The notes: generated by a model from the letters alone, not told the origin. Counted from the first letter of the stretch, positions 853-21,931 are shown. The stretch is 32,000 bases of DNA from Candidatus Saccharimonadota bacterium (GCF_008189285.1 NZ_CP043315.1:360001-392000), one strand, 5' to 3'. A program made the numbers and translations.

Positions 853-1350
853 TCAATTTTCAAAATATTTCTTATCTTTGCTTGATCTTGATCCAAATTC
901 AAACACATATGCATCCTTGAGACATGATCCAAAAATTCCTGCAGCTGTAGAAATAATGCAAATCATCTCAGTAGATAGATCAGAGATCATGCCTAAAACT
1001 AATAGGCAGAATGATAATCCTGCAAATGCTAAAAATAACATAATATGTCTTTTTCTTTTCTCATGCTTGCTCAGTAAAGCATCTCTTTTTCTAGCATTTT
1101 TTCTATCTTTGTGATGTATATCTTCTTTTATAATGCTTTCTATAGTCTTTTTTAAAATAATATTAACATGCTGATCTCCACTTAGCTTCTGTATTAATGA
1201 AGATTTATTGCACCCTTTTAAATACTTAAAGATATCAGATGCACTAGAGAAAAACAATTTTGAATAACTCTGCTTTCCCATAAACATGTTTCCAATAAAC
1301 GATCCTATAAATTTAAAAAATTGAAGAATCTTAATTACAATATTAATCAT
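853..1350 (-). CDS. hypothetical membrane protein, last gene of the capsid-module operon (two C-terminal TM helices; holin-like topology is speculation)
   Basis: The ORF-track start at 1356 is a TTG; the first ATG is at 1350 (MINIVIKIL...). A basic stretch (KDRKNARKRDALLSKHEKRKRH) is followed by hydrophobic segments IMLFLAFAGLSFCLLVLGMI and MICIISTAAGIFGSCL. It is co-oriented with the upstream phage-like genes. I recognise no family. Confidence 0.5.
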   Translation of the reverse strand: MINIVIKILQFFKFIGSFIGNMFMGKQSYSKLFFSSASDIFKYLKGCNKSSLIQKLSGDQHVNIILKKTIESIIKEDIHHKDRKNARKRDALLSKHEKRKRHIMLFLAFAGLSFCLLVLGMISDLSTEMICIISTAAGIFGSCLKDAYVFEFGSRSSKDKKYFEN

Positions 1351-1412
1351 TTGCAAGTGGAATAATTGTTATCTCTGGCTTTGGTAATTCAATAATCTCT
1401 TGTATGTAAAAA

Positions 1413-2936
1413 TTATCTAAGATATTCATTATGTCTCCTTTCTTCATTTTGACAGCTCTTATATAAATTCATTCTCAATTCATTAAAATGATGGTCATAA
1501 TTTGCATTATCTATAATTTTCAAACCAACTATTTGTCCAAAATCTCTTTCAAAATCTATTTTTGTTTTATTGATACATTGAGGCAAATTATAATCCTCTC
1601 CATAAATTCTTTCAATCAAAAACTGACCATGCTGTTTAATTGAATTCATATCAACATAATTATCGCAAAAATAATTTTCTGCTACATAATTTATTTTTTC
1701 ATTTTTATCAGGCTGTTTGTATTCATTAAAATGCAATTTAAATCTTACTTCATTTTTATTATTTTGAAATATTTTCTCATAAGAGAATACATAAGCATAT
1801 TTTTCTTGCATATGAATATCTTTAAATTTAATTTTATCCATTGTTTCTATAAAAGACCAATATTCTGCTGGCCCAGAAATTGAAATTGAATATTTATATG
1901 CATTTTTGCTAACATAACAGTTAATCAATTTCAATAATTGTTGAAAAATGTCTTGACCAGCATCTGAATCAAATAAATTGCATCCATACTGAGATGATCC
2001 AACAAAGCTCTTTTCATTTATCACAACCCAATTTTTTCTATCCATAAAATCACCTGATTTATGAGCTGAAATGCATTGGTAAATCTTATTATTTAATAAA
2101 ACTTTATCTCTGCTTAAGTAGTGCTCTTCTTCTTTCCATGCTTTATATTGAGCAATATATTTGTCTCCGTTTAAATTAATATTGAAATCTTTAATATTAT
2201 CAATATTAAAATTCATTTTCCATGCTTCAGATTTACTTCTCTTCTGCTCCTTTTTTAATGTTATAAAAACTCTGCCATCACGCATGTAAGAATTCGATAC
2301 AATATACTTTCCAAATCTTTGAGCTTTTTTCGGCATATTTTTTTTAATTTTACTTACTGCTTCTCTAGAAATATATGAAGTTATACTATTCATCACGTCT
2401 ATCATTTTCATCTCATGCTCATTCCAACGAATATTAACATTGCATTCGAATGAATTATTATTGCTAGGAATATTGTATTCTTTGCTATATATTTTATCAT
2501 CATCTAAAGCTAAATGATAAATATTTGGATCATGCTTATTTAAATTAAAAACTCTTTTCTGAGAATCAAATAACAAAACATCATTTACATGCTTCCCGCT
2601 TGGATTAAAAATTTCATTAATAGGATCTAACTCAAATGCTTTTTCAATATCTTCTTGTTTGGGATCAGAAATCATACTAATAATAACTGATATTTTATCA
2701 ATTCTCTTTGAAACTATGCTCCCTAAAAAAACAACTTTATTATTATATGCAATTGCACAATGTTTAATTTTTTCAATAATTTCAATATCATGCAAGCTTA
2801 CATGAATTTCTGCTTTTGCTTTACTATTAACATTTTGACTTATTTTGATTAAATCTACTTTATTGCTATATTTATCTTCATCTTTTAAATCACTTGCATT
2901 AATTTCATTTTCAGATGCAAAAAATAAAATGCTCAT
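1413..2936 (-). CDS. hypothetical 507-aa protein of the capsid-module operon (unknown function)
   Basis: The ORF-track start at 2960 is a TTG. The ATG at 2936..2934 forms an ATGA overlap with the stop of the upstream 152-aa ORF, suggesting translational coupling. There is no Walker A, so it is not a large terminase. Residues about 274-314 (nt 2019..2141), AWKEEEHYLSRDKVLLNNKIYQCISAHKSGDFMDRKNWVVI, weakly resemble a CBM5/12-type W..Y..D.V....Y......W motif. Confidence 0.6.
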   Translation of the reverse strand: MSILFFASENEINASDLKDEDKYSNKVDLIKISQNVNSKAKAEIHVSLHDIEIIEKIKHCAIAYNNKVVFLGSIVSKRIDKISVIISMISDPKQEDIEKAFELDPINEIFNPSGKHVNDVLLFDSQKRVFNLNKHDPNIYHLALDDDKIYSKEYNIPSNNNSFECNVNIRWNEHEMKMIDVMNSITSYISREAVSKIKKNMPKKAQRFGKYIVSNSYMRDGRVFITLKKEQKRSKSEAWKMNFNIDNIKDFNINLNGDKYIAQYKAWKEEEHYLSRDKVLLNNKIYQCISAHKSGDFMDRKNWVVINEKSFVGSSQYGCNLFDSDAGQDIFQQLLKLINCYVSKNAYKYSISISGPAEYWSFIETMDKIKFKDIHMQEKYAYVFSYEKIFQNNKNEVRFKLHFNEYKQPDKNEKINYVAENYFCDNYVDMNSIKQHGQFLIERIYGEDYNLPQCINKTKIDFERDFGQIVGLKIIDNANYDHHFNELRMNLYKSCQNEERRHNEYLR

Positions 2937-3391
2937 ATTTCTTCTAATTCCAATTTCCAAGTAGATTTTCCATATTTAAATTCAGATGTTAATTTGATGA
3001 CCTTCACTTTCAACATAATTCTATAATTTAATTTTAACCCATCATAACTTTCAGCTTCATCAATAGATTTTAAATATACTCTTTTATTATCTGCTGTTAT
3101 TAAAAATAAAGAGCCAGGAACAATATTTCTATCAATTTTAATCTCTTCAGATGGCTTAATATTTTGATTCATGCCTAATGCACATTCTAAAATCATAATT
3201 TCATTCATTCTGATCTCAGGTGCTGATCCAAATCCACATATCGATGATGTGTATTTATTATTGTTTGATACTATAATAGGATCTCCATTTATACTACGCT
3301 TCATAAAACTATTTGCTTCTAGAGTTTGCGTGCATTGATTTGAATCTATCACATTATAATTTCCAACCTCATATTTTAAAATTAAATTCAT
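2933..3391 (-). CDS. hypothetical 152-aa protein of the capsid-module operon
   Basis: A strong SD (GAGGTGG) lies directly upstream of the ATG at 3391. It sits 6 nt after the upstream ORF and has an ATGA overlap with the downstream ORF. No family recognised. Confidence 0.6.
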   Translation of the reverse strand: MNLILKYEVGNYNVIDSNQCTQTLEANSFMKRSINGDPIIVSNNNKYTSSICGFGSAPEIRMNEIMILECALGMNQNIKPSEEIKIDRNIVPGSLFLITADNKRVYLKSIDEAESYDGLKLNYRIMLKVKVIKLTSEFKYGKSTWKLELEEI

Positions 3392-3397
3392 ACCACC

Positions 3398-3721
3398 TCA
3401 TTCATCTTCAACATCTCTTTGAATTGCAATCAAAAATCTTATGATTCCTTTGTTTACATCGCAAACACAATCAACGCATTTTTCATCGCTGCATATTTTA
3501 TTTTTTAATTTGACAAACTTCTCATAATATTCTGTATTAATTTCGAATTTCTTTAAACGCATACAGTATCTTATCCAAAGTTTTTCACAATCTTGTTCAT
3601 GCTGTTCTATTTCTATATTTAAAACATCATGCGCACTATTATCCTGAAATCCAATGTATGAATTTGGAAATACGCTTGATGCAATTTTTAATATTTTCTT
3701 ATTACATTCATTTAATTTCAT
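3398..3721 (-). CDS. hypothetical 107-aa cysteine-rich protein of the capsid-module operon
   Basis: An SD-like AAAGG lies upstream. It carries a C-terminal cysteine cluster, CSDEKCVDCVCD, plus further Cys residues. It sits where RcGTA-type clusters carry g8, but I see no recognisable similarity. Confidence 0.55.
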   Translation of the reverse strand: MKLNECNKKILKIASSVFPNSYIGFQDNSAHDVLNIEIEQHEQDCEKLWIRYCMRLKKFEINTEYYEKFVKLKNKICSDEKCVDCVCDVNKGIIRFLIAIQRDVEDE

Positions 3722-3741
3722 TTCTATACCTTTTGTTTGTT

Positions 3742-4248
3742 TTAATTTTGATAATTTGCACTATCAGTTTGCACTAATGTACTTTCATCATTATCACCCT
3801 CTTCAATATCAGTTGAGTGATAGCTAGCATTAGTATCCAGATCATTTTTTTCTTGAACTTTACTATCAATTTCTTGAATATGCACATTATCTGTTGCAAA
3901 AATACTTTGACTTCTAATTTCTTTAGCAAACAAATAGCCGTACCTATTATTAATTGGCTGAAGAAATGAATTAACTTTTACATATTTATCATTCCAAGCA
4001 GCCATAGAAAAATGCTTTGTATCAAGATTGCATACTATTCCAAAAAAATTCTGAATCACTCCAGTTTGTTTTTGATGCAAATTTAACGGAGCCATATGAC
4101 ACCAAATTTGTTCCATTTTTGTAACTTTTTGCACATATTTCCCATCTACAAAAACTTCATCTATGAAAATAGGCTCTATAAAATCTCTAAATCTTGGCAT
4201 TTCTCCTTGAAGAATAGAGTTCCATTTGTTTGGATAATTTGTGCTCAT
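3742..4248 (-). CDS. putative head-tail adaptor / head-closure-like protein (g7 position) with an acidic C-terminal tail
   Basis: It has an ATGA overlap with the upstream connector gene. It occupies the position directly after the gp6-like connector. The segment KMEQIWCHMAPLNLHQKQTG resembles the vWA.v.P.sg.E core of SPP1-gp16-type adaptors. The call is by position plus a weak motif only. Confidence 0.45.
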   Translation of the reverse strand: MSTNYPNKWNSILQGEMPRFRDFIEPIFIDEVFVDGKYVQKVTKMEQIWCHMAPLNLHQKQTGVIQNFFGIVCNLDTKHFSMAAWNDKYVKVNSFLQPINNRYGYLFAKEIRSQSIFATDNVHIQEIDSKVQEKNDLDTNASYHSTDIEEGDNDESTLVQTDSANYQN

Positions 4249-4787
4249 AATTTATTTCTCATGATTTTGAATGAATCCAACAAAACGTTATGATTTCTTA
4301 AATTATCACTCTTTTGAGCAGATCCATTGTATAAAACCTCAAATCTATTTAATAAATATTGCAAAATAGATGATGGCAAATCTTCTTCTTTTTCAAAACC
4401 AGCTGAATACTTAACTCTAACTTTTTTGTTCATATATTTATTCTTATTAAGCTCTAGAATCATGTAATCATTATGCTTTTGAACACAATAATCTTTGATA
4501 TTTTCAAATTTTCCATTTTTCATAACTTCAACGCTATTGATCTTTGCAATTGGCGGCTTTGGCAAATGCATTTGCACTTGATTATGCGTGTAAACCCATT
4601 TTTTTAATACAATAGATCTATCAGTGTAGGTTTCAGCCTGACTAATTGCAATTTTCAAAAGTTTCTTGATATATTCATCGCTCTCTTGAAGAGAAATTTT
4701 AAAATGATTCCTGATGAAATTTAAATCCACAGGCAAATCATTTGACTCTTCTTCTAAATGCAGATAATCATTACTAGCAACACTCAT
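4245..4787 (-). CDS. phage gp6-like head-tail connector protein (GTA g6-like)
   Basis: The N-terminus, LNFIRNHFKISLQESDEYIKKLLKIAISQAETYTDRSIVLKKWVY, matches the connector pattern (L..vK.hLrid..dDd.li..li.aA....e.ytgr.l....w). An AAGGA SD is present, and the gene starts right after the MCP stop. Confidence 0.7.
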   Translation of the reverse strand: MSVASNDYLHLEEESNDLPVDLNFIRNHFKISLQESDEYIKKLLKIAISQAETYTDRSIVLKKWVYTHNQVQMHLPKPPIAKINSVEVMKNGKFENIKDYCVQKHNDYMILELNKNKYMNKKVRVKYSAGFEKEEDLPSSILQYLLNRFEVLYNGSAQKSDNLRNHNVLLDSFKIMRNKL

Positions 4788-4797
4788 TATTTATCCT

Positions 4798-5997
4798 TTA
4801 CTTGCTATCTGCTTGAGTTTTTCTAAAGCCAACAAAAGCATCTTCTCTTATAACTTTAGCTCCAATATCATTTCTCACATAATTTTGCACCAAAGATTTT
4901 TTGCTGTATTTATCATGCAACACAAGCAGGTTGTCATTTTCTACAATCGCATAACCTTTTTTCAAATTACAAAAAATCAATTCACAATTCTTTCCTTCTA
5001 ATTCAGGAACAAAGTAAATTGGGTAATTTAAGAAATATTTATTATGACAATCTGAGTGAATCAAAAACCTTCCAGCCTTGTCTGTTAATTGCAAAAATTC
5101 ATTGTACATTCTTCTTGTCATCATCCATGCAGTATTTTCACCATGAAATTCTTCTGGAAGCTTACTCACCATATTAATGGCAGTTTCATAATTGAAATCT
5201 CCATCAATAATATATTTATCATCAGAAGGAACAATGCTATCTATTTTTCCTTCTACTCCATCTACAAACAAGCTTCTCTCTGTTTTAGACATATCATGTG
5301 CAATTTTAGCAAGAACAAATGATTCAAAATTAATTGGCTTGCTATGCATCATATCTTGAGGAATGTTTGCACAAGCTTCAATTGGACATAATTCAATATC
5401 ATTGTTTTTAAAAGTCACATCAGTTGAATTTGCATTATCATAAGCATTGTCACAGTCTCCTGCAGTGACTTGAATATCATTTACAAAGGAAAGCTTAAAA
5501 GATCTACCTCTTTGAATTGAATATTTTGAAGCCAATTTCCTAACTGGAGAAACATAACTTGACATTTGAGTTAAATATTGATTAAGATGCGGGAAAGTAA
5601 AATATCCACCTACTTCTTGCATGTCATTTTTTCTCTCTAATGAATTTCCAGTGCAAACATAGTCTCCAAATTCTTTTTCAAAATTATTATTACACTTAGA
5701 CCATGAAGAAATGCTTTTCTTTTCGATAGGTTTATTTTTATCATTTTTATCTGATAATTCAAACATTTTTCTATCTAAATCCATGCATTTCTTCTCCAAT
5801 TCACTTTGTTTGTTTTCCATATTTTTTTGCCCTTCTTTAATTTTTTCTTGATCTTGTTTAATGCTGACTTGTTCTTCTGTATTTTTTTTACTTTGCTCTT
5901 CTAGTTCATGCTTGCATTCATAAAATGCCTTTCCAAAAACTTTCAACGAATCTTGATGACTCGCATCTTTTCTCTCTATATTGTTAATTTGATTCAT
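4798..5997 (-). CDS. HK97-family major capsid protein with an N-terminal coiled-coil (delta/scaffold-like) region
   Basis: 399 aa. About 110 charged coiled-coil residues (EEQSKKNTEEQVSIKQDQEKIKEGQKNMENKQSELEKKCMDLDRKMFEL) are followed by GGYFTFPHLNQYLTQMSSYVSPVRKLASKYSI, typical of HK97-type MCPs. It directly follows a prohead protease gene. Confidence 0.85.
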   Translation of the reverse strand: MNQINNIERKDASHQDSLKVFGKAFYECKHELEEQSKKNTEEQVSIKQDQEKIKEGQKNMENKQSELEKKCMDLDRKMFELSDKNDKNKPIEKKSISSWSKCNNNFEKEFGDYVCTGNSLERKNDMQEVGGYFTFPHLNQYLTQMSSYVSPVRKLASKYSIQRGRSFKLSFVNDIQVTAGDCDNAYDNANSTDVTFKNNDIELCPIEACANIPQDMMHSKPINFESFVLAKIAHDMSKTERSLFVDGVEGKIDSIVPSDDKYIIDGDFNYETAINMVSKLPEEFHGENTAWMMTRRMYNEFLQLTDKAGRFLIHSDCHNKYFLNYPIYFVPELEGKNCELIFCNLKKGYAIVENDNLLVLHDKYSKKSLVQNYVRNDIGAKVIREDAFVGFRKTQADSK

Positions 5998-6049
5998 AAT
6001 TTACCTTTCTTAATTTTAATAACAAAAAATAATCTTGAGTAATAAATAA

Positions 6050-6481
6050 TCAACTTTCAACTTTATTAATCAAAGCTGAACGATTAGCAGGAAATCGAAC
6101 AATGGAAATTTCTCTTAAATCAATTTTAGTCAATCTTCTGACATTTCCATCTGTTTCATACATTATAGGCTTAAAACCAATAGAAAGACCACATATTTTT
6201 TTCTCTCTTATCATATTGTAAATTTCTTCACCCATATATAAATTTTTAAATATCTTGCCTGTAACGTGCAATCCAACATTATTTTCTTCAATTTCAATCC
6301 ACTTACCCAATGGAATTCCGAAATCATGTTGAAAAAGCATATCTATATCAGAAAAATCTCTAATAGCTGCTTTAAATGCATTAGGCAAAATAATATCACC
6401 TTTTAGATCTATTTCATTAAATGTGCTTGCATAGCCATAAAATAAACCATCTTCATTAATATTTTTAATTTCTAACTTCAT
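6050..6481 (-). CDS. HK97-family prohead maturation protease
   Basis: Motifs FYGYASTFNEIDLKGDIILPNAFKAAI...MLFQHD...GLSIGF...LREISIVRFPANRSA match the S78/U35 prohead protease pattern. Confidence 0.85.
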   Translation of the reverse strand: MKLEIKNINEDGLFYGYASTFNEIDLKGDIILPNAFKAAIRDFSDIDMLFQHDFGIPLGKWIEIEENNVGLHVTGKIFKNLYMGEEIYNMIREKKICGLSIGFKPIMYETDGNVRRLTKIDLREISIVRFPANRSALINKVES

Positions 6482-6505
6482 TTTCTCTTTCTAATTCTTT
6501 ATTTT

Positions 6506-6982
6506 TTATTCTTCTTCATTGCGTTCTGATAATGAATAATCCACAAATGGAATGAATAACATATCACTATTATGCATATAATATGCAGATTGAGTTTTCA
6601 AACAAATAGCAACAGTTTCTCTATTAATTGTTTTTTCTGCGCTTTCTGAATCAGGCACAAATTTCAATTTACATCCAAATAAACTTCCTTTTACAGAAAG
6701 AACAGGTGCTTTGTAAATAATATTTCCTTTATACGTAAAGGCTATATAATCAATATTATTATCATGATATTCACTGATTTGCCATTCACTTTCATTTGAA
6801 TAATCTTTAGCATTTAATGAAAAATCTTTGCTTTTATTAGATTCAACATTCTTATTTGCAACAACCATTTGATCAGATAATTTATTAATAGACTCTTCTA
6901 TTAAAAGAAAATTTCCATCCATTTGTTTAGCTGTTAATGGCCCACTATTTCTTTCGAAAGTTGTTAGTTCTAATTTATTCAT
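6506..6982 (-). CDS. hypothetical 158-aa protein between portal and protease (g3.5 position, but much larger)
   Basis: The ORF track starts at 7003. I prefer the ATG at 6982, which is preceded by an AAGGAAA SD and lies 1 nt after the portal TAA stop (6986..6984). It reads MNKLELTTFERNSGPLTAKQMDGNFLLIEESINKL... No family recognised. Confidence 0.55.
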   Translation of the reverse strand: MNKLELTTFERNSGPLTAKQMDGNFLLIEESINKLSDQMVVANKNVESNKSKDFSLNAKDYSNESEWQISEYHDNNIDYIAFTYKGNIIYKAPVLSVKGSLFGCKLKFVPDSESAEKTINRETVAICLKTQSAYYMHNSDMLFIPFVDYSLSERNEEE

Positions 6983-6983
6983 T

Positions 6984-8111
6984 TTATTTTCCTTTGTATC
7001 CACATAATTCGCGTTTTTCCTCTATAGATAGGAAAGATAGCCCATCAACATGTTTTTCGTATTCTTCTTTTTGCGCAGAAAGAACAGGAACGCTTGAAAA
7101 ATCATATTCTAGTTGCAAATCCGGATAGTTTTGCAATAACCAATCCTTCAATTGACTCAAAATCATACTAGCAAATGGAAAAAGAGTTTCTTTCCAGAAA
7201 TTAGATCTTGCTTCTCTGTAATATGTAAAAGATGAGGCTTCGTGCATTCCAAGCATTACTGGAGGGACTCCAAATGCCAATGCTATCTCTCTTGCTGAAT
7301 CCATCTTTGCTTTGCTAAAATCCATATCTTTTGGAGAAATGCTCATTTCTTTCCATTGAGCACCTCCTTCTAGAATCATTATTCTTCCAGCAGAATCTGA
7401 TCCAGAATATCTTGAGTCCAATCTTTCTCTTAGATCGCTAATTTGGTCATCAGTCAAATGATTGTCAAAAACTAATGCCCCAGAAACCCTTCCTCCATTG
7501 TTTAATATGGATTGATTGTGATTAGTAATAGAGTTATAAAGCATAGCTGATTTCTCAATAGATGAAATTGGACTCATTCCCTTCCATGGAGAAGAAGGAT
7601 TGAATAGTTTAATATGCAAGAATTTTTTGTCATTTGCATCAATTTTACACTCATCAGAGCATGCATATTGTTCTGCATCTCCAGAATCATTTCGATCTAT
7701 TCTAACATTTTTTGCATTCATACGAATAATCTCATCTTCATCATATTTGTATAAATAAGCATTTCCATGCAACAACAAATCAATCACTGTGGCATTAATC
7801 ATCATAAACCAATCGCATTTATCATTTGGTCTTGTGATTAATTTAGCTATTTCATGATCTTTCAGTATATTTCCATCTTTATCTTTTAATTCATATTTTA
7901 TATTTGCTATATTTTGCGCTATCAAATTAACGCATCTGTACACTATCACATTATCTTCATACAAGTTTCCACAGTATGATTCACGGCTTGTATAATTTGC
8001 AATAGTGTCATATATTACATTCTTTGGCTTGCTGAAATTCTTTTTCTCAAATTGAGAAGGCTCATTCATACGCTTGCCATTAGATTGCAAAAATTTCTTC
8101 AAAAAATTCAT
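6984..8111 (-). CDS. HK97-family phage portal protein
   Basis: 375 aa with VYRCVNLIAQNIANIKYEL, LLLHGNAYLY and GGAQWKEMSISPKDMDFSKAKMDSAREIALAFGVPPVMLG, all typical portal motifs. It is the first gene of the operon. Confidence 0.9.
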   Translation of the reverse strand: MNFLKKFLQSNGKRMNEPSQFEKKNFSKPKNVIYDTIANYTSRESYCGNLYEDNVIVYRCVNLIAQNIANIKYELKDKDGNILKDHEIAKLITRPNDKCDWFMMINATVIDLLLHGNAYLYKYDEDEIIRMNAKNVRIDRNDSGDAEQYACSDECKIDANDKKFLHIKLFNPSSPWKGMSPISSIEKSAMLYNSITNHNQSILNNGGRVSGALVFDNHLTDDQISDLRERLDSRYSGSDSAGRIMILEGGAQWKEMSISPKDMDFSKAKMDSAREIALAFGVPPVMLGMHEASSFTYYREARSNFWKETLFPFASMILSQLKDWLLQNYPDLQLEYDFSSVPVLSAQKEEYEKHVDGLSFLSIEEKRELCGYKGK

Positions 8112-8248: not shown

Positions 8249-8938
8249 TTACAGCACATTTTCCACTTTTTTAATTTCGTTAATAATGTACTTTTCATGC
8301 ATGCTTTTTCTATAATTTGCATATTTTGAATCAAAAAACTCCATCAAAAGTTTAGCTTGGTCTATTTTTTTCAAACCTAACAAGCATTCCATAATATTTA
8401 AAATACTTCTAGGCATTTTATCTTCATTTTTTCTGTACACAATATCACTTTTATTTCTAATCATTGATTTATAGAATTGACCTAAGTGCAAAATCGCATT
8501 AGTAAATTTTTTCTGTTTTAATCTAATCATTCCCATCCAATAATAGTGGGAACATGGATCAGAAGATTTCATTTTTGACAATTTAAAAAATTTCCTATAA
8601 GCAGAGTTCATATCCCCTCTTGCCATCAGTTTAATTCCATCTTGATGTATTTTTATGTAATCTTTTCTAGATATTTGATCTTCAGATTTATTTAGCGGGA
8701 TGTATTCAATAATATTTTCTATATATATTTCATGCCCATTTTTTTTAGTCAAACTTCTCCTTGAGGCTTCATTCAAAATATTTCTGATGCTTTCAATTTT
8801 CTTTTCGCAATTAATTTTCTGATCACCTGTAATTTGCTTGTCTTCACAAAGACTTATCAAGTGCATTTTTACATTATCCAATTCATAATCTACATCAGCG
8901 AACAAAACGCCACAAAAAAAAGCAAAAACTAAGAACAT
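8249..8938 (-). CDS. secreted TPR-repeat protein, CpoB/YbgF-like (Tol-Pal associated)
   Basis: The N-terminal signal-like segment is MFLVFAFFCGVLFA. The C-terminal half (SAYRKFFKL...HYYWMGMIRLKQKKFTNAILHLGQFYKSM...ILNIMECLLGLKKIDQAKLLMEFF) fits the TPR pattern of YbgF/CpoB. Family assignment is tentative. Confidence 0.45.
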   Translation of the reverse strand: MFLVFAFFCGVLFADVDYELDNVKMHLISLCEDKQITGDQKINCEKKIESIRNILNEASRRSLTKKNGHEIYIENIIEYIPLNKSEDQISRKDYIKIHQDGIKLMARGDMNSAYRKFFKLSKMKSSDPCSHYYWMGMIRLKQKKFTNAILHLGQFYKSMIRNKSDIVYRKNEDKMPRSILNIMECLLGLKKIDQAKLLMEFFDSKYANYRKSMHEKYIINEIKKVENVL

Positions 8939-11003: not shown

Positions 11004-11576
11004 ATGAACTGCCCTTACATTACTAAATCTGGAGACAAAGGAAAAACTTCAATCATGAACAAAAGGCTTGCAAAATATAGCCCTCTAATATGTTTTATTG
11101 GAGCTCTTGATGAAATAAATTCAAATATTGGTTTAATTTTAAGTCATATAAATGAAAAAAACTTTTCTGATCTAAATCTAACAAAGCTTCTTCTAAACAT
11201 ACAAAATCAACTTCTAAATATAGGAGGATATATGAGCGGAGGAAACATAACAATTGATGAAAAGTACCATTTATACATAGAAGAGCAAAGCAATTTATTT
11301 TTCAAAAATCTGAAAAATGCAAATAATTTTGTTTTTCCTGGAGGATCTATGCTATCAAGTTATATACATATTACAAGATGCATCATTAGAAGATCAGAAA
11401 CTATATTTTGGCAATACATAAACCAAGCAAATTCAGAATCAGAATCACAGCCAGAATCACAGCATGTTGGGCAATATATCAATCGACTATCTGATTTATT
11501 TTTTGTTCTCGGAAGGTTACACGGACAAAAAAATGAACTACTATGGAAGGTAGGAGAATTTCTTTATGAACAATGA
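11004..11576 (+). CDS. ATP:cob(I)alamin adenosyltransferase, PduO/MMAB type
   Basis: The N-terminus YITKSGDKGKTSIMNKRLAKYSPLICFIGALDEINSNIGL matches the Y.r.GD.G.T.l..g.r..K.....e..G.lDElns.iG signature. FVFPGG and INRLSDLFFVL are also present. Confidence 0.8.
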   Translation: MNCPYITKSGDKGKTSIMNKRLAKYSPLICFIGALDEINSNIGLILSHINEKNFSDLNLTKLLLNIQNQLLNIGGYMSGGNITIDEKYHLYIEEQSNLFFKNLKNANNFVFPGGSMLSSYIHITRCIIRRSETIFWQYINQANSESESQPESQHVGQYINRLSDLFFVLGRLHGQKNELLWKVGEFLYEQ

Positions 11577-11931
11577 AAATAATATCAGCAATATGAGCTT
11601 TGAAGAAATTATTATGAAATTAGAGCAAATAACAACAAAACTTGAAAGTGGATCTATGCCATTAGATCAAGCAGTTGAAACATACACTAGCGGAATAGAG
11701 CTAAAGAAAACAGCAGAAAAACAGTTAAAGAATGCTTATTTAAAACTACAATCTGTTCAAGAAAGCGCAATTGTATCTAAATTCAGAGAGCAATTTGTTA
11801 TTTTGTTGGAAAATTTTCAAAATTCTATTATCCAATCTCTGGAATCAAAAGATAGCGAAAGCTCAATCAAAGCAAAGAATAAAGAATTTTTAAGCAATTT
11901 AATTGAAATTTACAACAGATCATCACAATAA
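11566..11931 (+). CDS. xseB: exodeoxyribonuclease VII small subunit with a C-terminal extension
   Basis: MSFEEIIMKLEQITTKLESGSMPLDQAVETYTSGIELKKTAEKQLKNA is the classic XseB helical hairpin. At 121 aa it is longer than the usual 70-80 aa or so. It overlaps the upstream gene by 11 nt. Confidence 0.75.
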   Translation: MNNENNISNMSFEEIIMKLEQITTKLESGSMPLDQAVETYTSGIELKKTAEKQLKNAYLKLQSVQESAIVSKFREQFVILLENFQNSIIQSLESKDSESSIKAKNKEFLSNLIEIYNRSSQ

Positions 11932-12015
11932 AATACGAAGCGTTGTAATTATAAAATCATAAAATATTCAAATTTGTTTGCAATTATTTAATTTATTAGA
12001 TATAACAATGGAGTT

Positions 12016-12246
12016 ATGTTTTTTGCGATTATAATAATGGGAATTTTAGCTTTAAAAGTTATCTATAAATATGAACCGAAAGGGTTAATTAAATATACAT
12101 ACAACATGCTTTTGTTTTCTTTATTTTTAGTAACATTAATATCACTTGTTGTATTTATGATATTTCTTATTTTATCGCCAGTTTTGTTAACAAAAACAGG
12201 AATAGATTTGGCCAAAAGCATCATGATGTATACAGCAAAAATTTAA
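12016..12246 (+). CDS. hypothetical small membrane protein (76 aa, two TM segments)
   Basis: The only support is an ORF with two hydrophobic stretches in an otherwise empty gap. In AT-rich DNA, short Phe/Ile/Leu-rich ORFs can arise by chance. Confidence 0.3.
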   Translation: MFFAIIIMGILALKVIYKYEPKGLIKYTYNMLLFSLFLVTLISLVVFMIFLILSPVLLTKTGIDLAKSIMMYTAKI

Positions 12247-12292: not shown

Positions 12293-12961
12293 ATGTTTAA
12301 ACTGAGCCAAGATGGAATCAAAATAGCTAAAGTTCTTATACTAGTTATAGCTTTAAGCTTTGTTTTAGGTAAATTTATCACACTGCTATCAGTAGGGCTT
12401 TTAATTTTATTCAGAGATGAAAATAGAATTATTACCAATCCAAATGCAGTATTATCACCATGTGATGGAATTGTTTTATCCATTGAAAATAATGTAAAAT
12501 TCAATCTATCTGATAAATATCAAAACAATAAATGGAATAAAATAACTATTTTAAATGGAATACTAGATATCCATGCAAATAGAATGCCAATGAGTGGAGA
12601 AGTAGAAGAAATAATCTACACTCCTGGAGATTCTAGAGATCGCTATATCTACAAGCAAAATGAAAAAATATCTTGGATCATTAATGGAGATATAGATTTT
12701 ATTCTATCTCATTCTGTAGATACAATATTTCATGTTGTTTCATCCAAAGTAAAGAAAAATCAATTTGCAAAAATTGGAGAAACATATGCTAATAGCTTTA
12801 TAGGAGCAACAATAGAGCTGTATTTGCCTCAAGATATTGAAATTACTATTTCAGAAGGGCAAAAAATGGTTGCAAGCGAAACTTCTATAACAAACAGCAT
12901 AGTGAAAAATGCGATGAATCAACATCCCTCTAAAAAAATCACTAAGAAAGATACAAAATGA
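12293..12961 (+). CDS. phosphatidylserine decarboxylase-like paralog lacking the pyruvoyl-precursor serine (probable pseudoenzyme)
   Basis: It has the short-form Psd architecture: an N-terminal TM, then LFRDENR...SPCDGIV...DIHANRMPMSG. The self-cleavage motif reads FIGATIELYLP (GGA GCA ACA at 12803..12811), where the downstream copy has FGSRVDTYFP. Confidence 0.7.
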   Translation: MFKLSQDGIKIAKVLILVIALSFVLGKFITLLSVGLLILFRDENRIITNPNAVLSPCDGIVLSIENNVKFNLSDKYQNNKWNKITILNGILDIHANRMPMSGEVEEIIYTPGDSRDRYIYKQNEKISWIINGDIDFILSHSVDTIFHVVSSKVKKNQFAKIGETYANSFIGATIELYLPQDIEITISEGQKMVASETSITNSIVKNAMNQHPSKKITKKDTK

Positions 12962-13629
12962 TTAAAAGAACTTTTATTGATAAAGTAAGGTCAGATGGAT
13001 ACAACACAATTGCTATATCTTTTCTTGCTTCGCTATTTTCATTTTATTACAGTTATTATTTAGGATTATGCGGATTGCTATTTACTGCTTTTTGCATATG
13101 GTTTTTTAGAGATCCAGATAGGGTTGTGCCAAATAGAAGCGATATTGTTATAAGTCCAGCAGATGGAATTGTTGTTGATATAGAAAGAAACGTATCTTCT
13201 CCAGAATTTAAAGATGGATCTTGGACAAGAATAGGAATATTTCTAAGATTATCTGACGTTCATGTTAATAGATTTCCTATTAGCGGAAAAATTATGCACA
13301 TGAAATATGAAAAAGGAGGATTTGGATTTGCATGGGGCAAAAAAACTCATATGAAAAATGAGAGATTAGCCATATTTATCAAAGGATTTATTGATTGCAT
13401 AGTTGTTCAAATAGCTGGATTTGTAGCAAGAAGAATTGTCACAGATGTTTCTACTAAAGATGATGCAAAAATGGGATCAACTTATGGAATGATCAAATTT
13501 GGAAGCAGAGTAGACACTTATTTTCCTGGAGATATGATAATTCATATAAAAAGAAAGCAAACTGTAGTTGCCGGAGAAACAATCATAGCTAGCAAGCCAA
13601 AAATAACGAAAGAAAGCAATGAAAAATAA
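12958..13629 (+). CDS. psd: phosphatidylserine decarboxylase proenzyme (short, alphaproteobacterial type)
   Basis: FFRDPDRVVP...ISPADGIVV...DVHVNRFPISG...NERLAI...VQIAGFVARRIV...IKFGSRVDTYFP. The Asp/His/Gly-Ser signature is intact (GGA AGC at 13501..13506). It has an ATGA overlap with the upstream paralog. Confidence 0.85.
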   Translation: MIKRTFIDKVRSDGYNTIAISFLASLFSFYYSYYLGLCGLLFTAFCIWFFRDPDRVVPNRSDIVISPADGIVVDIERNVSSPEFKDGSWTRIGIFLRLSDVHVNRFPISGKIMHMKYEKGGFGFAWGKKTHMKNERLAIFIKGFIDCIVVQIAGFVARRIVTDVSTKDDAKMGSTYGMIKFGSRVDTYFPGDMIIHIKRKQTVVAGETIIASKPKITKESNEK

Positions 13630-16480: not shown

Positions 16481-17881
16481 ATGAATATAAACAAATTATT
16501 ACTATCAACTATAATCATACAATCTATGGTTTCAGCACCAGATAAAGTAATGCTTGATATGATGAAGGAAGACATAGAAGTATATCAAAAAATTAGAGAA
16601 GAGAATGATAAGGATCGTGAAATTGTATCGGGAAATAGAGAGTTTGCTATTTCTTTTATGTTTGATCTAAAAGCGAAAAGCAAGGGTAAAGAAGCATCGT
16701 ACTTAAAAGATAATATTAATAAAGACATTATGAATATTATTGTTTCTTTCTTAGTAAAAAAAGGAGATTTCTATAAAATTAATCCAGATAATCCATATTA
16801 TTCTGAAAACATGTATAATTTGAATTATGAATTTGATTCATCAAGTTCATTGAAACACTATCTTGCAAAGTACATTGATGTTAATAATTTTGAATACGTA
16901 GATCATGATGGCAGATTTATAGAAAAAGCATACTTTTGCATAAGGTATATTTCTATGCATGATGATGAAATGAAAAGAGGTATGAGTAGTTTTACAGAGC
17001 TTAATCTATCACAAAGCCAAATCACTTCAATGAAGCCAGGAGCATTTGTAGGATTAAGTAGTTTGACAACGCTTAATCTATCATATAATCAAATCACTTC
17101 AATTAAGCCAGGAGCATTTGCAGGATTGAGTAGTTTGACAACGCTTAATCTATATAGAAATCGAATCACTTCACTTGAGCCAGGAATATTTGCAGGATTA
17201 AGTAGTTTGACAGAGCTTAGTCTATCAGACAATCAAATCACTTCACCTGAACAAGGGGTATTTGCAGGATTGAGTAGTTTGATAAAGCTGAATCTATCAA
17301 GCAATCAAATCACTTCACTTGAACCAGGAGCATTTGAAGGATTGAGTAGTTTGACAGAGCTTAGTCTATCAGACAATCAAATCACTTCAATTACAAGAGC
17401 ATTTGCAGGATTGAGTAGTTTGACAAAGCTTAATCTATATAGAAATCAAATTGCTTCAATTGAACCAGGAGCATTTGAAGGATTGGGTAGTTTGACAACG
17501 CTTGATTTATCATTGAATCAAATCACTTCAATTGAACCAAGAGTATTTGCAGGATTGAGTAGTTTGATAAAGCTTGATCTATCATGGAATCAAATCACTT
17601 CACTTGAAAAAGTAGCATTTGCAGGATTGAGCAGCTTAACAGAGCTTTATCTATCGTATAATAAAATCACTTTACTTGAACAAGGAGCATTTGCAGGATT
17701 GAGTAGTTTGACAAAGCTTAATCTATTAGGAAGTCAAATCACTTCACTTGAAAAAGTAGCATTTGCAGGATTGAGCGACTTGAAAATACTTAATTTGAAT
17801 TCTAATGCTTTAGATGAACAATCTAAGGATTGTTTGGAAGAGCTAAAAAAGATGCTCCCAAATATTGAAATCTCATCTTAA
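16481..17881 (+). CDS. secreted leucine-rich repeat protein, paralog 1 (signal peptide + conserved ~145-aa N-module + ~11 x 24-aa LRRs + C-cap)
   Basis: MNINKLLLSTIIIQSMVSA|PD is Sec-signal-like. From nt about 16981 to 17770 there are 72-bp periodic units encoding LxxLxLSxNQITSLEPGAFxGLSS. The C-cap is LKILNLNSNALDEQSKDCLEELKKMLPNIEISS. Confidence 0.9.
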   Translation: MNINKLLLSTIIIQSMVSAPDKVMLDMMKEDIEVYQKIREENDKDREIVSGNREFAISFMFDLKAKSKGKEASYLKDNINKDIMNIIVSFLVKKGDFYKINPDNPYYSENMYNLNYEFDSSSSLKHYLAKYIDVNNFEYVDHDGRFIEKAYFCIRYISMHDDEMKRGMSSFTELNLSQSQITSMKPGAFVGLSSLTTLNLSYNQITSIKPGAFAGLSSLTTLNLYRNRITSLEPGIFAGLSSLTELSLSDNQITSPEQGVFAGLSSLIKLNLSSNQITSLEPGAFEGLSSLTELSLSDNQITSITRAFAGLSSLTKLNLYRNQIASIEPGAFEGLGSLTTLDLSLNQITSIEPRVFAGLSSLIKLDLSWNQITSLEKVAFAGLSSLTELYLSYNKITLLEQGAFAGLSSLTKLNLLGSQITSLEKVAFAGLSDLKILNLNSNALDEQSKDCLEELKKMLPNIEISS

Positions 17882-17922: not shown

Positions 17923-19173
17923 ATGAATATAAACAAATTATTGCTATCAACTATAATCATGCAATCTATTGTTGCAGCGCCAGATAAAGTAATGCTTGAT
18001 ATGATGAAGGAAGACATAGAAGTATATCAAAAAATTAGAGAAGAGAATGATAAGGATCGTGAAATTGTATCGGGAAATAGAGAGTTTGCTATTTCTTTTA
18101 TGTTTGATCTAAAAGCGAAAAGCAAGGGTAAAGAAGTATCGTACTTAAAAGATAATATCGATAAAGACATTATGAATATTATTGTTTCTTTCTTAATTGG
18201 AAACGGTTTTTTCTATAGAATTGATCCAAGCAATCCATATTATGTAGAAAATGAAGATTATAAATTAAGCTATCCATTTGATTCATTGAAATACTGTCTT
18301 GCAAAATACATTGATGTTAATAATTTTGAATACGTAGATCATGATGGCATATCTATGAGAAAAGGATACTTTGGCATGAAGTATATTTCTATGCATGATG
18401 ATAAAATGAAAAGAGGTATGAGTAGTTTGACAGAGCTTAGTCTACCAGACAATCAAATCACTTCACTTGAACCAGGAGTATTTGCAGGATTGAGTAGCTT
18501 AATAGATCTTGAGCTATCGCGTAACAAAATCACTTCACTTGAACAAGGAGTATTTGCAGGATTGAGTAGCTTAATAGATCTTGAGCTATCGCGTAACAAA
18601 ATCACTTCACTTGAACAAGGAGCATTTGAAGGATTGAGTAGTTTGACAGAGCTTTATCTATTAGGAAATCAAACCACTGAAATTAAACCAGGAGCATTTG
18701 TAGGATTGAGTGGTTTGACAGAACTTAGTCTATATAGAAATAAAATCACTTTACTTGAACAAGGAGCATTTGCAGGATTAAGTAGTTTGACAAAGCTTGA
18801 TATATCAGAAAATCAAATTGCTTCACTTGAACCAGGAGCATTTGCAGGATTGAGTAGTTTGATAAAGCTTGATCTATCAGACAATCAAATTGCTTCACTT
18901 GAACCAGGAGTATTTGAAGGATTGAGTAGTTTGATAAAGCTTGATCTATCATGGAATCAAATCACTTCAATTGAAAAAGGAGCATTTGAAGGATTAAGTA
19001 GTTTGACAAAGTTTGATCTACCAAGTTCAATCACTGAAATTAAACCAAGAGCATTTGAAGGATTGAGCGACTTGAAAATACTTAATTTGAATTCTAATGC
19101 TCTAGATGAAAAATCTAAGGATTGTTTGGAAGAGCTAAAAAAAATGCTCCCAAATATTGAAATATCATCTTAA
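17923..19173 (+). CDS. secreted leucine-rich repeat protein, paralog 2
   Basis: Same architecture as paralog 1. Positions 17980..18136 are identical to 16538..16694 of paralog 1 (157 nt). The LRR array spans about 18415..19060 and the C-cap is nearly identical to that of paralog 1. Confidence 0.9.
   Translation: MNINKLLLSTIIMQSIVAAPDKVMLDMMKEDIEVYQKIREENDKDREIVSGNREFAISFMFDLKAKSKGKEVSYLKDNIDKDIMNIIVSFLIGNGFFYRIDPSNPYYVENEDYKLSYPFDSLKYCLAKYIDVNNFEYVDHDGISMRKGYFGMKYISMHDDKMKRGMSSLTELSLPDNQITSLEPGVFAGLSSLIDLELSRNKITSLEQGVFAGLSSLIDLELSRNKITSLEQGAFEGLSSLTELYLLGNQTTEIKPGAFVGLSGLTELSLYRNKITLLEQGAFAGLSSLTKLDISENQIASLEPGAFAGLSSLIKLDLSDNQIASLEPGVFEGLSSLIKLDLSWNQITSIEKGAFEGLSSLTKFDLPSSITEIKPRAFEGLSDLKILNLNSNALDEKSKDCLEELKKMLPNIEISS
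18479..18622 (+). repeat. perfect 72-bp tandem duplication (2 units) inside LRR-2
   Basis: Units 18479..18550 and 18551..18622 are base-for-base identical (tatttgcaggattgagtagcttaatagatcttgagctatcgcgtaacaaaatcacttcacttgaacaaggag). Each encodes VFAGLSSLIDLELSRNKITSLEQG. Confidence 0.95.
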
Positions 19174-20153: not shown

Positions 20154-20333
20154 TTTATAGAAGTCAATTAAAAATCCAAAATGATAAATCAATAATACAA
20201 TTTCTAAAATATCATAAATATCATAAATTTTAACATAAAAATTTATTGAATTAAAAATCTGAAAGATACTTCGTATTAAGGCATCAATTATTCTTCTTTT
20301 TAAAGCATAAATATTTGTTAGTTTAAATAAATA

Positions 20334-20342
20334 TGATAGAGT
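20334..20342 (+). promoter_or_regulatory. degenerate extended -10 box TGATAGAGT, 5 nt upstream of the LRR-3 ATG
   Basis: TG at 20334-35 and TAGAGT at 20337-42, then GTGAA, then the ATG at 20348. The ORF-track ATG at 20333 sits inside this box. Confidence 0.35.
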
Positions 20343-20347
20343 GTGAA

Positions 20348-21931
20348 ATGAATATAAATAAATTATTATTGCAAACTATATTTATTCAATCTGCAGCTGC
20401 AATGCTAAATGAGCAAGATATAGATATGATGTGCAAAGATATTACAATATATCAAAAAGTGCAAAAAGAGAATGAATTAATAGCAAAAACTATATCATCT
20501 AATAAAATATGCGCGCTTCCATTTATGATTTGCTCATATAGAAAAAGAATGGCGCAGAAGAGCGGAGAGTCAAGAGGAATCGCAAATAAAGATATTGCAA
20601 AATACATTGTTTCATTCCTGATAGAAAGAAGCAAAAGTGAATTTTACAGAGTTGATCCAAAAAATGCAGATTATACAGCAAGCGAAGAGTATTCTTTGCG
20701 TTATATGTTTGATGCATTGAAGTATGATCTTGCAAAACATATTAATGCTGATGAATTTGGAAAAGCGGAGTATGCGCCATATGCAGGAATAGAATATTTT
20801 GATATATGCTATATTGCTCAACATTTTGATGAAGTGAAAGAACAGCTTAAATACTTTGTTAAAGAAATTAATTTAAAAGAAAATCAAATCACTTCAATTG
20901 ATTTAAGAATGCTTGTAGGGTTGGATAATTTAATAAGTCTTAATTTATCAAAAAATCAAATCACTTCTCTTGATCCAGGATTATTTTCTGGACTAAGCAA
21001 TTTGAAAAGCATTGTTATGCATAACAATCAAATAGCCTCACTTGATCCAGGATTATTTTCTGGATTAGGTGTTTTGGAAAGCATTTATCTGCATGAGAAT
21101 CAAATCACTTCTCTTGATCCAGGATTATTTTCTGGATTAGGTGTTTTGGAAAGCATTTATCTGTATGAAAATCAAATAGCTTCACTTGATCCAGGAGTAT
21201 TTTCTGGACTAAGCAATTTGAAAAGTATTATTATGCATAATAATCAAATAACTTCACTTGAACCAGGAGTATTTTTTGGATCAGATAGTTTAAAAACAAT
21301 TGATTTAGGGGCAAATCAAATCACTTCACTTAAAAAAAGAGCGTTTGCAGGGTTAATCAATTTGACAAGCCTTAATCTATCAAACAATCAAATCACTTCA
21401 GTTGAACCAGAAATGTTTGCAGAGTTAATCAATTTAAAAACACTTGATCTTTCATCCAATCAAATCACTTCTCTTGATCCAGGATTATTTTCTGGATTAG
21501 GTGTTTTGGAAAACATTTATCTGCATAATAATCAAATAGCTTCACTTGATCCAGGAGCATTTGCAGGATTGAGCAGCCTAACAGAGCTTGTTCTGATATA
21601 CAATCAAATCACTTCGCTTGAACCGGGAATATTTGAAGGATTAAGTAGTTTGCCAGAGCTTAATCTATCAGGCAATCAAATCACTGAAATTAAACCAGGA
21701 GCTTTTGAAGGATTGAATAGTTTGACAACGCTTGATCTATCAGGCAATCAAATCACTGAAATTAAACCAGGAGCTTTTGAAGGATTAAGTAGATTAGAAA
21801 CACTTGATCTACTATTAAATCAAACCACTTCAATTGATCAAGGAACATTTGAAGGATTGAATAGTTTGACAACGCTTGATCTGCAAGGCAACAAAATCAC
21901 TTCATTTGAAAAGGATTGTTTAAAGGATTGA
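20348..21931 (+). CDS. secreted leucine-rich repeat protein, paralog 3 (C-terminus disrupted by frameshifts)
   Basis: I prefer the start at 20348 (MNINKLLLQTIFIQSAAA), which aligns with the paralog N-termini. There are about 15 LRRs from about 20850. The ORF ends prematurely at ...NKITSFEKDCLKD*, and the ancestral last repeat and C-cap continue out of frame (next feature). Confidence 0.85.
   Translation: MNINKLLLQTIFIQSAAAMLNEQDIDMMCKDITIYQKVQKENELIAKTISSNKICALPFMICSYRKRMAQKSGESRGIANKDIAKYIVSFLIERSKSEFYRVDPKNADYTASEEYSLRYMFDALKYDLAKHINADEFGKAEYAPYAGIEYFDICYIAQHFDEVKEQLKYFVKEINLKENQITSIDLRMLVGLDNLISLNLSKNQITSLDPGLFSGLSNLKSIVMHNNQIASLDPGLFSGLGVLESIYLHENQITSLDPGLFSGLGVLESIYLYENQIASLDPGVFSGLSNLKSIIMHNNQITSLEPGVFFGSDSLKTIDLGANQITSLKKRAFAGLINLTSLNLSNNQITSVEPEMFAELINLKTLDLSSNQITSLDPGLFSGLGVLENIYLHNNQIASLDPGAFAGLSSLTELVLIYNQITSLEPGIFEGLSSLPELNLSGNQITEIKPGAFEGLNSLTTLDLSGNQITEIKPGAFEGLSRLETLDLLLNQTTSIDQGTFEGLNSLTTLDLQGNKITSFEKDCLKD

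Follow-up and report, generated by a model that had tools for sequence, protein, structure and literature searches.

Why obligate endosymbionts with genomes of about 600 kb should keep the genes for a phage particle is an open question, and one that the DNA analysed here poses in compact form. Within a stretch of 32,000 nucleotides (nt; NZ_CP043315.1:360001-392000, hereafter the window), the minus strand carries, from position 8111 to position 853, a tightly packed operon of ten open reading frames (ORFs), among them genes for a phage-type portal, a prohead protease and a major capsid protein (MCP). The source of the window is Candidatus Cytomitobacter indipagum, a Holosporaceae endosymbiont of diplonemid protists with a genome of 628 kb; the 507-amino-acid (aa) product of the operon is 100% identical to FZC35_01500. 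An initial annotation, made from the sequence alone, had read the operon as a head-only relative of alphaproteobacterial gene transfer agents (GTAs) whose tail module had given way to novel, lineage-specific proteins. The derivation from a GTA-type head cluster is borne out by what follows; the absence of a tail is not. On balance, we think that the operon is a vertically inherited, domesticated GTA-type cluster of Cytomitobacter and Nesciobacter that encodes a short-tailed particle and not a bare head.

Neither the locus nor its conservation is new. George et al. 2022 (Genome Biol Evol, PMC9254644), in their work on reduced GTA clusters of Holosporaceae and Rickettsiales endosymbionts, published this exact cluster (same organism, genes and position) as a "head/portal-only" GTA. 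They reported that C. primus, C. indipagum and N. abundans have it in synteny, downstream of ybgF, that terL lies elsewhere in the genome, that no other phage-related genes are present in these 600-kb genomes, that transcripts of most cluster genes can be detected, and that dN/dS (the ratio of non-synonymous to synonymous divergence) is below 1 wherever measurable, which points to purifying selection. The genes past the adaptor were left as unknowns with 'no detectable similarity', the particle was drawn as a capsid plus portal complex, and repurposing was raised as a possibility. A capsid published without means of attachment or delivery has encouraged the ideas of a storage compartment or of loss in progress. 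Our additions, none of which we found in the searchable literature, are modest: a tail hub with a CBM5/12 carbohydrate-binding domain, a holin-like protein, a module common to Holosporales and a gene fusion. Unlike in the published picture, three ORFs are here assigned, respectively, a hub fold with CBM5/12, a phage lysis-cassette family and a Holosporales-wide family. In the order of the operon, and with the labels used below, the ten genes are:

6984..8111, minus strand: portal protein (GTA g3 equivalent), 375 aa; Pfam Phage_portal 1.5e-65, phrog_12 2.7e-72, TIGR01537 8.8e-53.
6506..6982, minus strand: u165, 158 aa, between portal and protease; no family match.
6050..6481, minus strand: HK97-family prohead serine protease (g4), 143 aa; Peptidase_S78 7.5e-30, TIGR01543 5e-28, phrog_80 1.8e-39.
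4798..5997, minus strand: HK97-fold MCP (g5), 399 aa; TIGR01554 1.4e-33 over residues 31-389, Phage_capsid 3.9e-22 over residues 130-389.
4245..4787, minus strand: head-tail adaptor (g6-like), 180 aa; Phage_connect_1 1.1e-3, phrog_442 7.5e-6, TIGR02215 1.7e-5.
3742..4248, minus strand: u168, candidate g7-like head-closure protein or stopper, 168 aa; weak hhalign matches and position.
3398..3721, minus strand: u107, 107 aa, at the g8 (tail terminator) position; no family match.
2933..3391, minus strand: u152, 152 aa, Holosporales family F14 by hhalign.
1413..2936, minus strand: u515, predicted tail hub with an inserted CBM5/12 at about residues 265-307, 507 aa; AlphaFold2 plus Foldseek, and Pfam.
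853..1350, minus strand: u167, phrog_1544-type membrane protein, 165 aa; clustering with families F18/F79.

The first thing to establish is what the largest of these ORFs, u515, might be. Single-sequence searches of the unplaced ORFs against Pfam, PHROG, NCBIfam and PDB sequences returned only a weak CBM_5_12 match, profiles built from six species recovered from PDB sequences the carbohydrate-binding domain only, and tblastn of the Holosporales hub and of its upstream neighbour F14 against 50,697 phage records gave no match. Structure prediction was more informative. An AlphaFold2 model based on a 14-sequence alignment (predicted local distance difference test, pLDDT, 77; predicted template modelling score, pTM, 0.71) finds 47 matches at E<=1e-3 in a Foldseek search of the PDB, the best at 8.9e-10 and the top 39 with probability 1.00. 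All of the 50 PDB matches listed are tail-tip, baseplate or central-spike assemblies: the proteins given by name include the MuSo2 43-kDa tail protein, Mu gp44, a Neisseria tail protein, T4 gp27, VgrG, the pyocin R2 hub and a tail-associated lysin from a phage; among the assemblies are extracellular contractile injection systems, PVC/AFP, and tail tips or baseplates of the phages 80alpha, T5, Bxb1 and HFTV1. Against BFVD there are 341 matches at E<=1e-3, with probability 1.00 for all 50 listed and, where a name is given, with those of tail, hub or structural proteins, such as '43 kDa tail protein', 'Phage protein D', 'baseplate hub' and 'minor tail protein'. On the strength of the model, u515 is a single-chain tail hub of the gp27/Mu gp44/VgrG/Tal type.

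The resemblance to such hubs (gp27, Mu gp44, P2 gpD, VgrG, Tal) extends over nearly the whole length of the predicted fold. Unlike them, u515 shares only 6-11% identity with its matches, lacks a Pfam match of the Phage_GPD type, has a CBM5/12 inserted at its centre and has no sheath, spike or wedge genes beside it. The inserted domain scores 1.3e-4 in Pfam (22.4 bits, under the gathering score of 26.2). Nevertheless, the central motif is a real CBM5/12, because the profile of the family finds the chitinase A1 chitin-binding domain (ChiA1, 1ed7) at 5.4e-5 and because, when the profile was searched against 1.84 billion representative proteins, multi-repeat CBM_5_12 proteins aligned at about residues 265-307. 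These made up the remainder of the matches once about ten full-length or nearly full-length relatives beyond the query members (the window protein and its C. primus orthologue) had been set aside. Four residues of u515, namely W267, Y273, H292 and W303, are invariant or nearly so.

The second informative gene is the last one. The product of u167 is hydrophobic over three segments (about residues 1-20, 103-123 and 128-145), groups by BLAST with proteins of two Holosporales loci (L007 and L028), and aligns at 99-100% in hhalign (99.2% for F79) with F18/F79, the last gene of Holosporales clusters, where it follows a Hydrolase_2 endolysin. Against phrog_1544 the homologue from L007 scores 9e-18 along the entire profile, the window protein alone 0.045. 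By these matches, u167 falls into the phage family phrog_1544, a family with members, by tblastn, in Polaromonas phage Tiera and Vibrio phages. The phrog_1544 gene of both Tiera and VHML lies directly 3' of an endolysin with GH108 and PG_binding_3 domains and, in VHML, just before the terminase genes. The sites are L090:3453-3977 (Tiera), L092:3444-3860 (VHML) and L091:3447-3929 (Vibrio phage 1.165.O, after a DUF5675 protein). The family is annotated as of 'unknown function'; it resembles a family of holins or lysis accessories that has escaped annotation.

Gene context and topology suggest that u167 is holin-like, in keeping with the earlier guess of a membrane or holin-like release protein. 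The likeness to phage lysis cassettes, in which the endolysin gene is followed by that of the holin, lies in the homologues directly 3' of GH108 or Hydrolase_2 endolysins and in the arrangement of one N-terminal and two C-terminal hydrophobic segments. There are differences too: the family has a soluble N-terminal part of about 90 residues and no endolysin gene stands beside u167, nor was one found in any Cytomitobacter or Nesciobacter operon (window and five related loci). No match to Pfam holin families was obtained. Within the clade, u167 is the most conserved gene of the operon, at 47-68% identity (68% to C. primus) versus 43-54% for the portal, and with a dN of 0.25 versus 0.33. Note that it is also more conserved than yidC, though the cluster has no endolysin.

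To place these genes in a wider context we collected, by means of a 120-sequence portal alignment, 80 GTA-like loci from alphaproteobacterial genomes, called and clustered their ORFs and built family profiles (an earlier scan of contigs with a single portal sequence had returned nothing). The canonical clusters follow the order terL, portal, protease, MCP, g6, g7, g8, g9, g10, g10.1, g11, g12, g13, g14. In less reduced Holosporales (Holosporaceae, Finniella, Paracaedibacteraceae and Nucleicultricaceae) the downstream module is another one, which we pieced together from several loci: g6, a g7-like gene (96.8%), a g8-like gene (87.8% to canonical g8), F14 (170 aa), the hub family F19 (about 600 aa), a protein of about 300 aa, a fibre-like protein of about 200 aa with a CBM_5_12 domain and weak matches to tail-fibre PHROGs, a Hydrolase_2 endolysin and F18/F79. 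By hhalign u152 corresponds to F14 (99.2%, E 2.4e-19), u515 to F19 (97.8%, E 8.7e-13, 384 columns) and u167 to F18/F79, so that three of the five ORFs that the initial annotation had called lineage-specific belong to a module common to Holosporales, the last of them with relatives in phages as well. The proposal that novel proteins had replaced the tail module fails on the same grounds, and on the predicted identity of the largest ORF as an ordinary phage tail hub with CBM5/12. The Cytomitobacter/Nesciobacter clade, in turn, appears from this gene content to have lost the protein of about 300 aa, the fibre-like protein and the endolysin.

Two of the Holosporales loci are of interest for their spacing. 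In L007, a locus of a metagenome-assembled genome (MAG), the F14 and hub genes are parted by an EamA transporter gene (11226-12167) that runs on the opposite strand, and in L057 about 3.6 kb separate the g8-like gene from F14; tail block and head block can therefore drift apart. A search of viral contigs with the degenerate pattern GCIQRLWQ yielded only one more Holosporales GTA-like contig. An 11-kb contig listed as 'viral' in IMG/VR (IMGVR_UViG_3300047994_000542, our L097) is a Holosporales GTA-like cluster with portal, MCP, g6, g7-like, g8-like and F14 genes, and serves as an example of GTA-like clusters catalogued as viruses.

What precedes the hub in the operon is a head of familiar design. 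Portal, S78 protease and MCP are unambiguous on their profile matches, stand in the g3-g5 order of GTAs, and cluster with the canonical GTA families F0, F2 and F1; the nearest relatives of the portal are those of Cytomitobacter and Nesciobacter, followed by Holosporales and Rhizobiales GTA portals at 35-40% identity. The Pfam domain of the MCP begins at residue 130, leaving an N-terminal region of about 130 residues that resembles a delta or scaffold domain. The 180-aa protein is weak when searched alone, but matches F3, a family that includes canonical Rhodobacterales g6, at 99.8% in hhalign (E 4.7e-29), which identifies it, at the level of profiles, as a g6-type adaptor. In all these respects the initial annotation of portal, protease, MCP with delta-like N-terminus and gp6-like connector holds. 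It had also called the 168-aa protein u168 adaptor-like, of which a weak likeness to g7 (hhalign E about 3e-3) is what remains: matches above background are confined to families at the g7 position, namely F44 (13-35%, E 4e-4 to 2e-3), which itself matches canonical g7 at 96.8% in hhalign, and a merged g7 profile (9%, E 3.8e-3, 102 collinear columns), with other families at 0.1%. We consider u168 to be probably the stopper, an assignment that is weak and partly positional; its C-terminal tail is acidic and variable within the clade.

The three small ORFs are harder to place. At the g8 position, u107 is kept in the clade at 15-40% identity and shows no match in Pfam, PHROG, NCBIfam, PDB sequences or the GTA family profiles, so a role as terminator is suggested by position only. 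In a related 619-kb genome (ENA ERZ25333217) the orthologues of u168 and u107 are fused in frame into one ORF of 225 aa (L002:13626-14303), which suggests that the two proteins work together in equal numbers and would fit neighbouring 1:1 ring proteins. Next in line, u152 is 151-154 aa long in all six genomes, at 23-40% identity to the window protein (the same range as for u515 within the clade). F14, its counterpart, occurs in Holosporaceae, Finniella, Paracaedibacteraceae and Nucleicultricaceae clusters, and on every contig where both were seen the gene is found at or close to the 5' side of the hub gene, which it overlaps by ATGA in the window. Neither u152 nor F14 matches Pfam, PHROG or PDB sequences, tblastn found neither in phages, and hhalign links u152 to neither g9 nor g12 of GTAs; a single-sequence AlphaFold model reached a pLDDT of 29. 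It is a candidate for a ring protein of distal-tail or tube-like type.

The remaining small ORF, u165, belongs to the clade alone. It is present in all seven related loci at 17-35% identity (17-28% in full loci, 35% in the partial seventh contig), has no match in Pfam, PHROG or NCBIfam, and is unlike the small ORFs that occupy the same slot in canonical GTAs. With a dN of 0.88 against a saturated dS of about 1 it evolves faster than any other gene of the operon and is nearly unconstrained in sequence. Its N-terminal 35 or so residues (LnTyERN-GPLT--QMDeNW--IE) weakly resemble the N-terminus of F38, a CBM5/12 fibre-like protein of other Holosporales (hhalign 62%, E 7.5e-5).

Is such a cluster maintained or merely on its way out? 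We compared the window with C. primus, two genomes of 619-622 kb, a 558-kb MAG, N. abundans and a partial contig of the closest relative (76% portal identity). The same ten genes, all intact and with the same flanking genes, are present in six of six full loci (genomes of 558-628 kb), and the partial seventh contig has the first genes. Estimates of dN range from 0.25 to 0.88, while dS never falls below 0.86 in any pair and exceeds 1 for most genes; dN/dS is unusable here, as dS is saturated in every pair, the closest relative included. However, that ten frames, one of them of 500 codons, should stay open at this divergence and at about 27% GC implies purifying selection on every gene. We infer that the operon is maintained, as the initial annotation had proposed from intact ORFs, to which synteny in six genomes at saturated synonymous sites is now added.

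How might these parts make a particle? Portal, S78 protease and the MCP with its scaffold-like N-terminus form a head-assembly set, with the g6 adaptor next to it. From there, u168, u107 and u152 could form stacked rings (stopper, terminator and distal-tail-like) that join the portal-adaptor complex to a trimer of the hub. We propose such a stack because in the Rhodobacter capsulatus GTA (RcGTA) stopper, terminator, tube and distal-tail proteins have a common fold and are stacked between the adaptor and the hub (Bardy et al. 2020, PMC7296036), and we propose a stub of a tail because no tube, chaperone or tape-measure genes were found in the cluster. The CBM5/12 of the hub would bind a glycan of N-acetylglucosamine (GlcNAc) type on a target surface, and the holin-like u167 would make the producer's membrane permeable so that particles can leave; endolysin and fibre of less reduced Holosporales have presumably been lost here. 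Since terL is reported elsewhere in the genome, DNA packaging and GTA-like transfer between symbiont cells are the default function, an unproven one. Whatever its load, a particle with a glycan-binding hub and a lysis-type membrane protein is expected to be released, to bind a surface and to open a channel, so that hub domain and holin-like protein become concrete targets for tests and narrow the search by cryo-electron tomography and proteomics.

Compared with RcGTA (g1-g15), the window has in common the order portal, protease, MCP, g6 and, on the weak match of u168, g7, homologous portal, protease, MCP and g6 genes and, in part by conjecture on the side of the window, the logic of adaptor, ring proteins and three-fold hub. 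The two systems differ in that terL stands beside the portal gene in RcGTA, whereas the portal gene of the window is preceded by a 229-aa non-phage gene and yidC; in that the ORF that separates portal and protease here has no relationship to the small ORFs of canonical GTAs at that place; and in that a holin-like gene is present in cis. By hhalign no homologue of g8, g9, g10, g10.1, g11, g12, g13, g14 or g15 is detectable in the operon, and u107, u152 and u515 show no link to families F7, F8, F9, F10, F6, F5 and F12; likewise, u515/F19 and u152/F14 show none to the canonical g7-g14 families. Finally, in RcGTA hub g13 and megatron g15 divide the gp27 fold between them (Bardy et al. 2020, PMC7296036), whereas u515 has the whole of it in one chain, plus the CBM5/12 insertion.

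Several points weigh against a short-tailed particle. The u515 model reaches modest TM-scores (query 0.3, targets 0.43-0.51, with 0.51 for pyocin R2), which we ascribe to insertions and domain orientation. The match of u168 to g7 is weak (hhalign 9-35%), and for u107 and u152 neither a similarity to g8, g9 or g12 could be detected nor a usable model obtained, so that gene order alone gives them their place as rings. It is unusual for a holin to stand without an endolysin, and the part of phrog_1544 in lysis is deduced from its gene neighbours. For terL in this organism we depend on George et al. 2022 (PMC9254644). Genes for a divergent tube or tape measure could sit elsewhere in the genome, as sequence searches missed the hub too. 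Last, transmission electron microscopy (TEM) of more than 850 symbiont cells showed no particles (George et al. 2022, PMC9254644).

Other explanations have to be set against these data. Imagine the operon encoded a head only, an encapsulin-like or cargo capsid whose tail module had given way to cargo, surface or host-interaction proteins peculiar to the lineage. Sequence searches would then be expected to give what they gave, that is, no tail family for the five ORFs and no tube, tape-measure or chaperone genes in the cluster, and repurposing of some kind was raised by George et al. 2022 (PMC9254644). The fold of the largest ORF, a tail hub, speaks against a bare head, together with the retention of the adaptor and the g7-like neck gene and with the occurrence of three of the five ORFs in Holosporales clusters that also have a fibre-like gene and an endolysin. 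A closed nanocompartment, moreover, needs neither portal nor adaptor, and the window has portal, protease, adaptor and hub where an encapsulin is an HK97-fold shell that lacks portal, protease and neck and takes up cargo by a targeting peptide. We therefore think a head-only capsid improbable. Less probable still is a decaying prophage or GTA remnant without current function. The negative TEM search, the near-neutral u165 and a gene set that is smaller than that of RcGTA and misses the endolysin, fibre and ~300-aa genes of other Holosporales could all be read as decay; yet ten intact, collinear ORFs in six genomes, packed tightly with ATGA overlaps, are hard to reconcile with it at these synonymous distances, an unconstrained frame of 500 codons would not stay open at such a base composition, and both transcripts and dN/dS below 1 in measurable comparisons (George et al. 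2022, PMC9254644) point the same way. A remnant is, accordingly, very unlikely.

One might also suppose that we see one part of a complete, long-tailed GTA, with genes for tube, chaperones and tape measure scattered elsewhere and too divergent to recognise. Scattering as such has precedents: terL lies apart from the cluster (PMC9254644), in another locus (L006) it is about 10 kb from the portal gene, and in some Holosporales inserted genes split the F14-F19 block from the head block; and a method that overlooked the hub could have overlooked other tail genes. On the other hand, in none of about ten less reduced Holosporales loci does a homologue of tube, tape-measure or chaperone genes stand between the g8-like gene and F14, and the 600-kb genomes are reported to hold no further phage-related genes (George et al. 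2022, PMC9254644), so we give a long tail little credence. A rival of a different sort accepts the short-tailed particle and disputes its use: the same structure would have been repurposed for protein delivery or for action on the eukaryotic host, by way of CBM5/12 adhesion and membrane attack. Clonal intracellular populations gain little from gene transfer (PMC9254644), the most conserved genes are those for the membrane protein and the portal, and the hub retains its carbohydrate-binding domain, all of which would fit. Retained terL (PMC9254644), portal and protease, by contrast, fit DNA packaging, and CBM5/12-type domains are also found on the fibre-like proteins of related clusters, with their weak tail-fibre PHROG matches. 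We hold repurposing to be unlikely.

Returning to the short-tailed particle, we may ask whether it is a peculiarity of one clade. A bolder conjecture, which we put forward tentatively and with considerable doubt, is that Holosporales share a minimal tail design, in which a GTA-type head and neck lead via one or two rings, with neither tube nor tape measure, to an unsplit, gp44-like hub with CBM5/12, a holin-like protein being the most conserved component, and that in the 560-630-kb genomes of Cytomitobacter and Nesciobacter, with endolysin and fibre gone, this design serves some purpose other than classical gene transfer, for example contact with host structures or delivery into them.

The layout of the operon agrees with the initial description of ten co-oriented, closely linked genes on the minus strand (8111-853) with Shine-Dalgarno-like motifs before most of them. 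In gene order the junctions measure 1, 24, 52, 10, -4 (ATGA), 20, 6, -4 (ATGA) and about 62 nt, and AAGGA/GAGG-like purine-rich motifs lie 5' of most starts. Alignment of orthologues sets the starts at ATG 6982 for the 158-aa ORF and at ATG 1350 for the last one, which makes it 165 aa long. Window GC is 25-35%, that is, AT-rich, with about 27% used for the argument from open frames above.

The flanks are identical in six species. On the 3' side the neighbour is lysC, named as such from the start and confirmed by an AA_kinase match of 1e-37. On the 5' side a 229-aa gene (8249-8938, minus strand) is followed by yidC on the opposite strand. The first label of the 229-aa gene, CpoB-like, finds no support in Pfam, where neither the gene at E<=0.01 nor any of its orthologues has a hit on record; George et al. 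2022 (PMC9254644) call it ybgF. Among the ORFs of the window no terminase, integrase or repressor was recognised, as had been stated before, nor did other marks of an integrated prophage (replication or lysis-lysogeny genes) turn up among them. Flanking att sites with an integrase, which the initial annotation had listed as a sign that its reading was wrong, are not apparent either: att-like direct repeats amount to chance-level AT-rich matches. It had further named two signs of an ordinary GTA or prophage, the unknown ORFs assigned to ordinary tail families and a terL nearby. The first is what the structure search gave; the second was not seen.

In DNA as AT-rich as this, promoter and terminator scans returned no more hits than expected from shuffled sequence, and of the two tRNAs in the window the nearest is at least 14 kb from the operon. 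The rest of the window holds housekeeping genes and five leucine-rich-repeat (LRR) paralogues on the plus strand (16481-17881, 17923-19173, 20333-21931, 25903-27516 and 27559-28539), a large share for a reduced genome. They match Pfam LRR_8 at up to 6.7e-195 in the three that were scanned, have in common an N-terminal region of about 170 aa starting MNINKLLLS, and are probably secreted host-interaction factors. The sign flips of GC skew, near 11 kb and near 28 kb, coincide exactly with switches of the coding strand; we considered the change at about 11 kb as a replication origin and rejected it, since the skew tracks the coding strand. Two phosphatidylserine-decarboxylase-like genes stand in tandem and overlap (12293-12961 and 12958-13629, plus strand), a duplication that is kept in all related genomes, with PF02666 found twice per locus in L001-L005 too.

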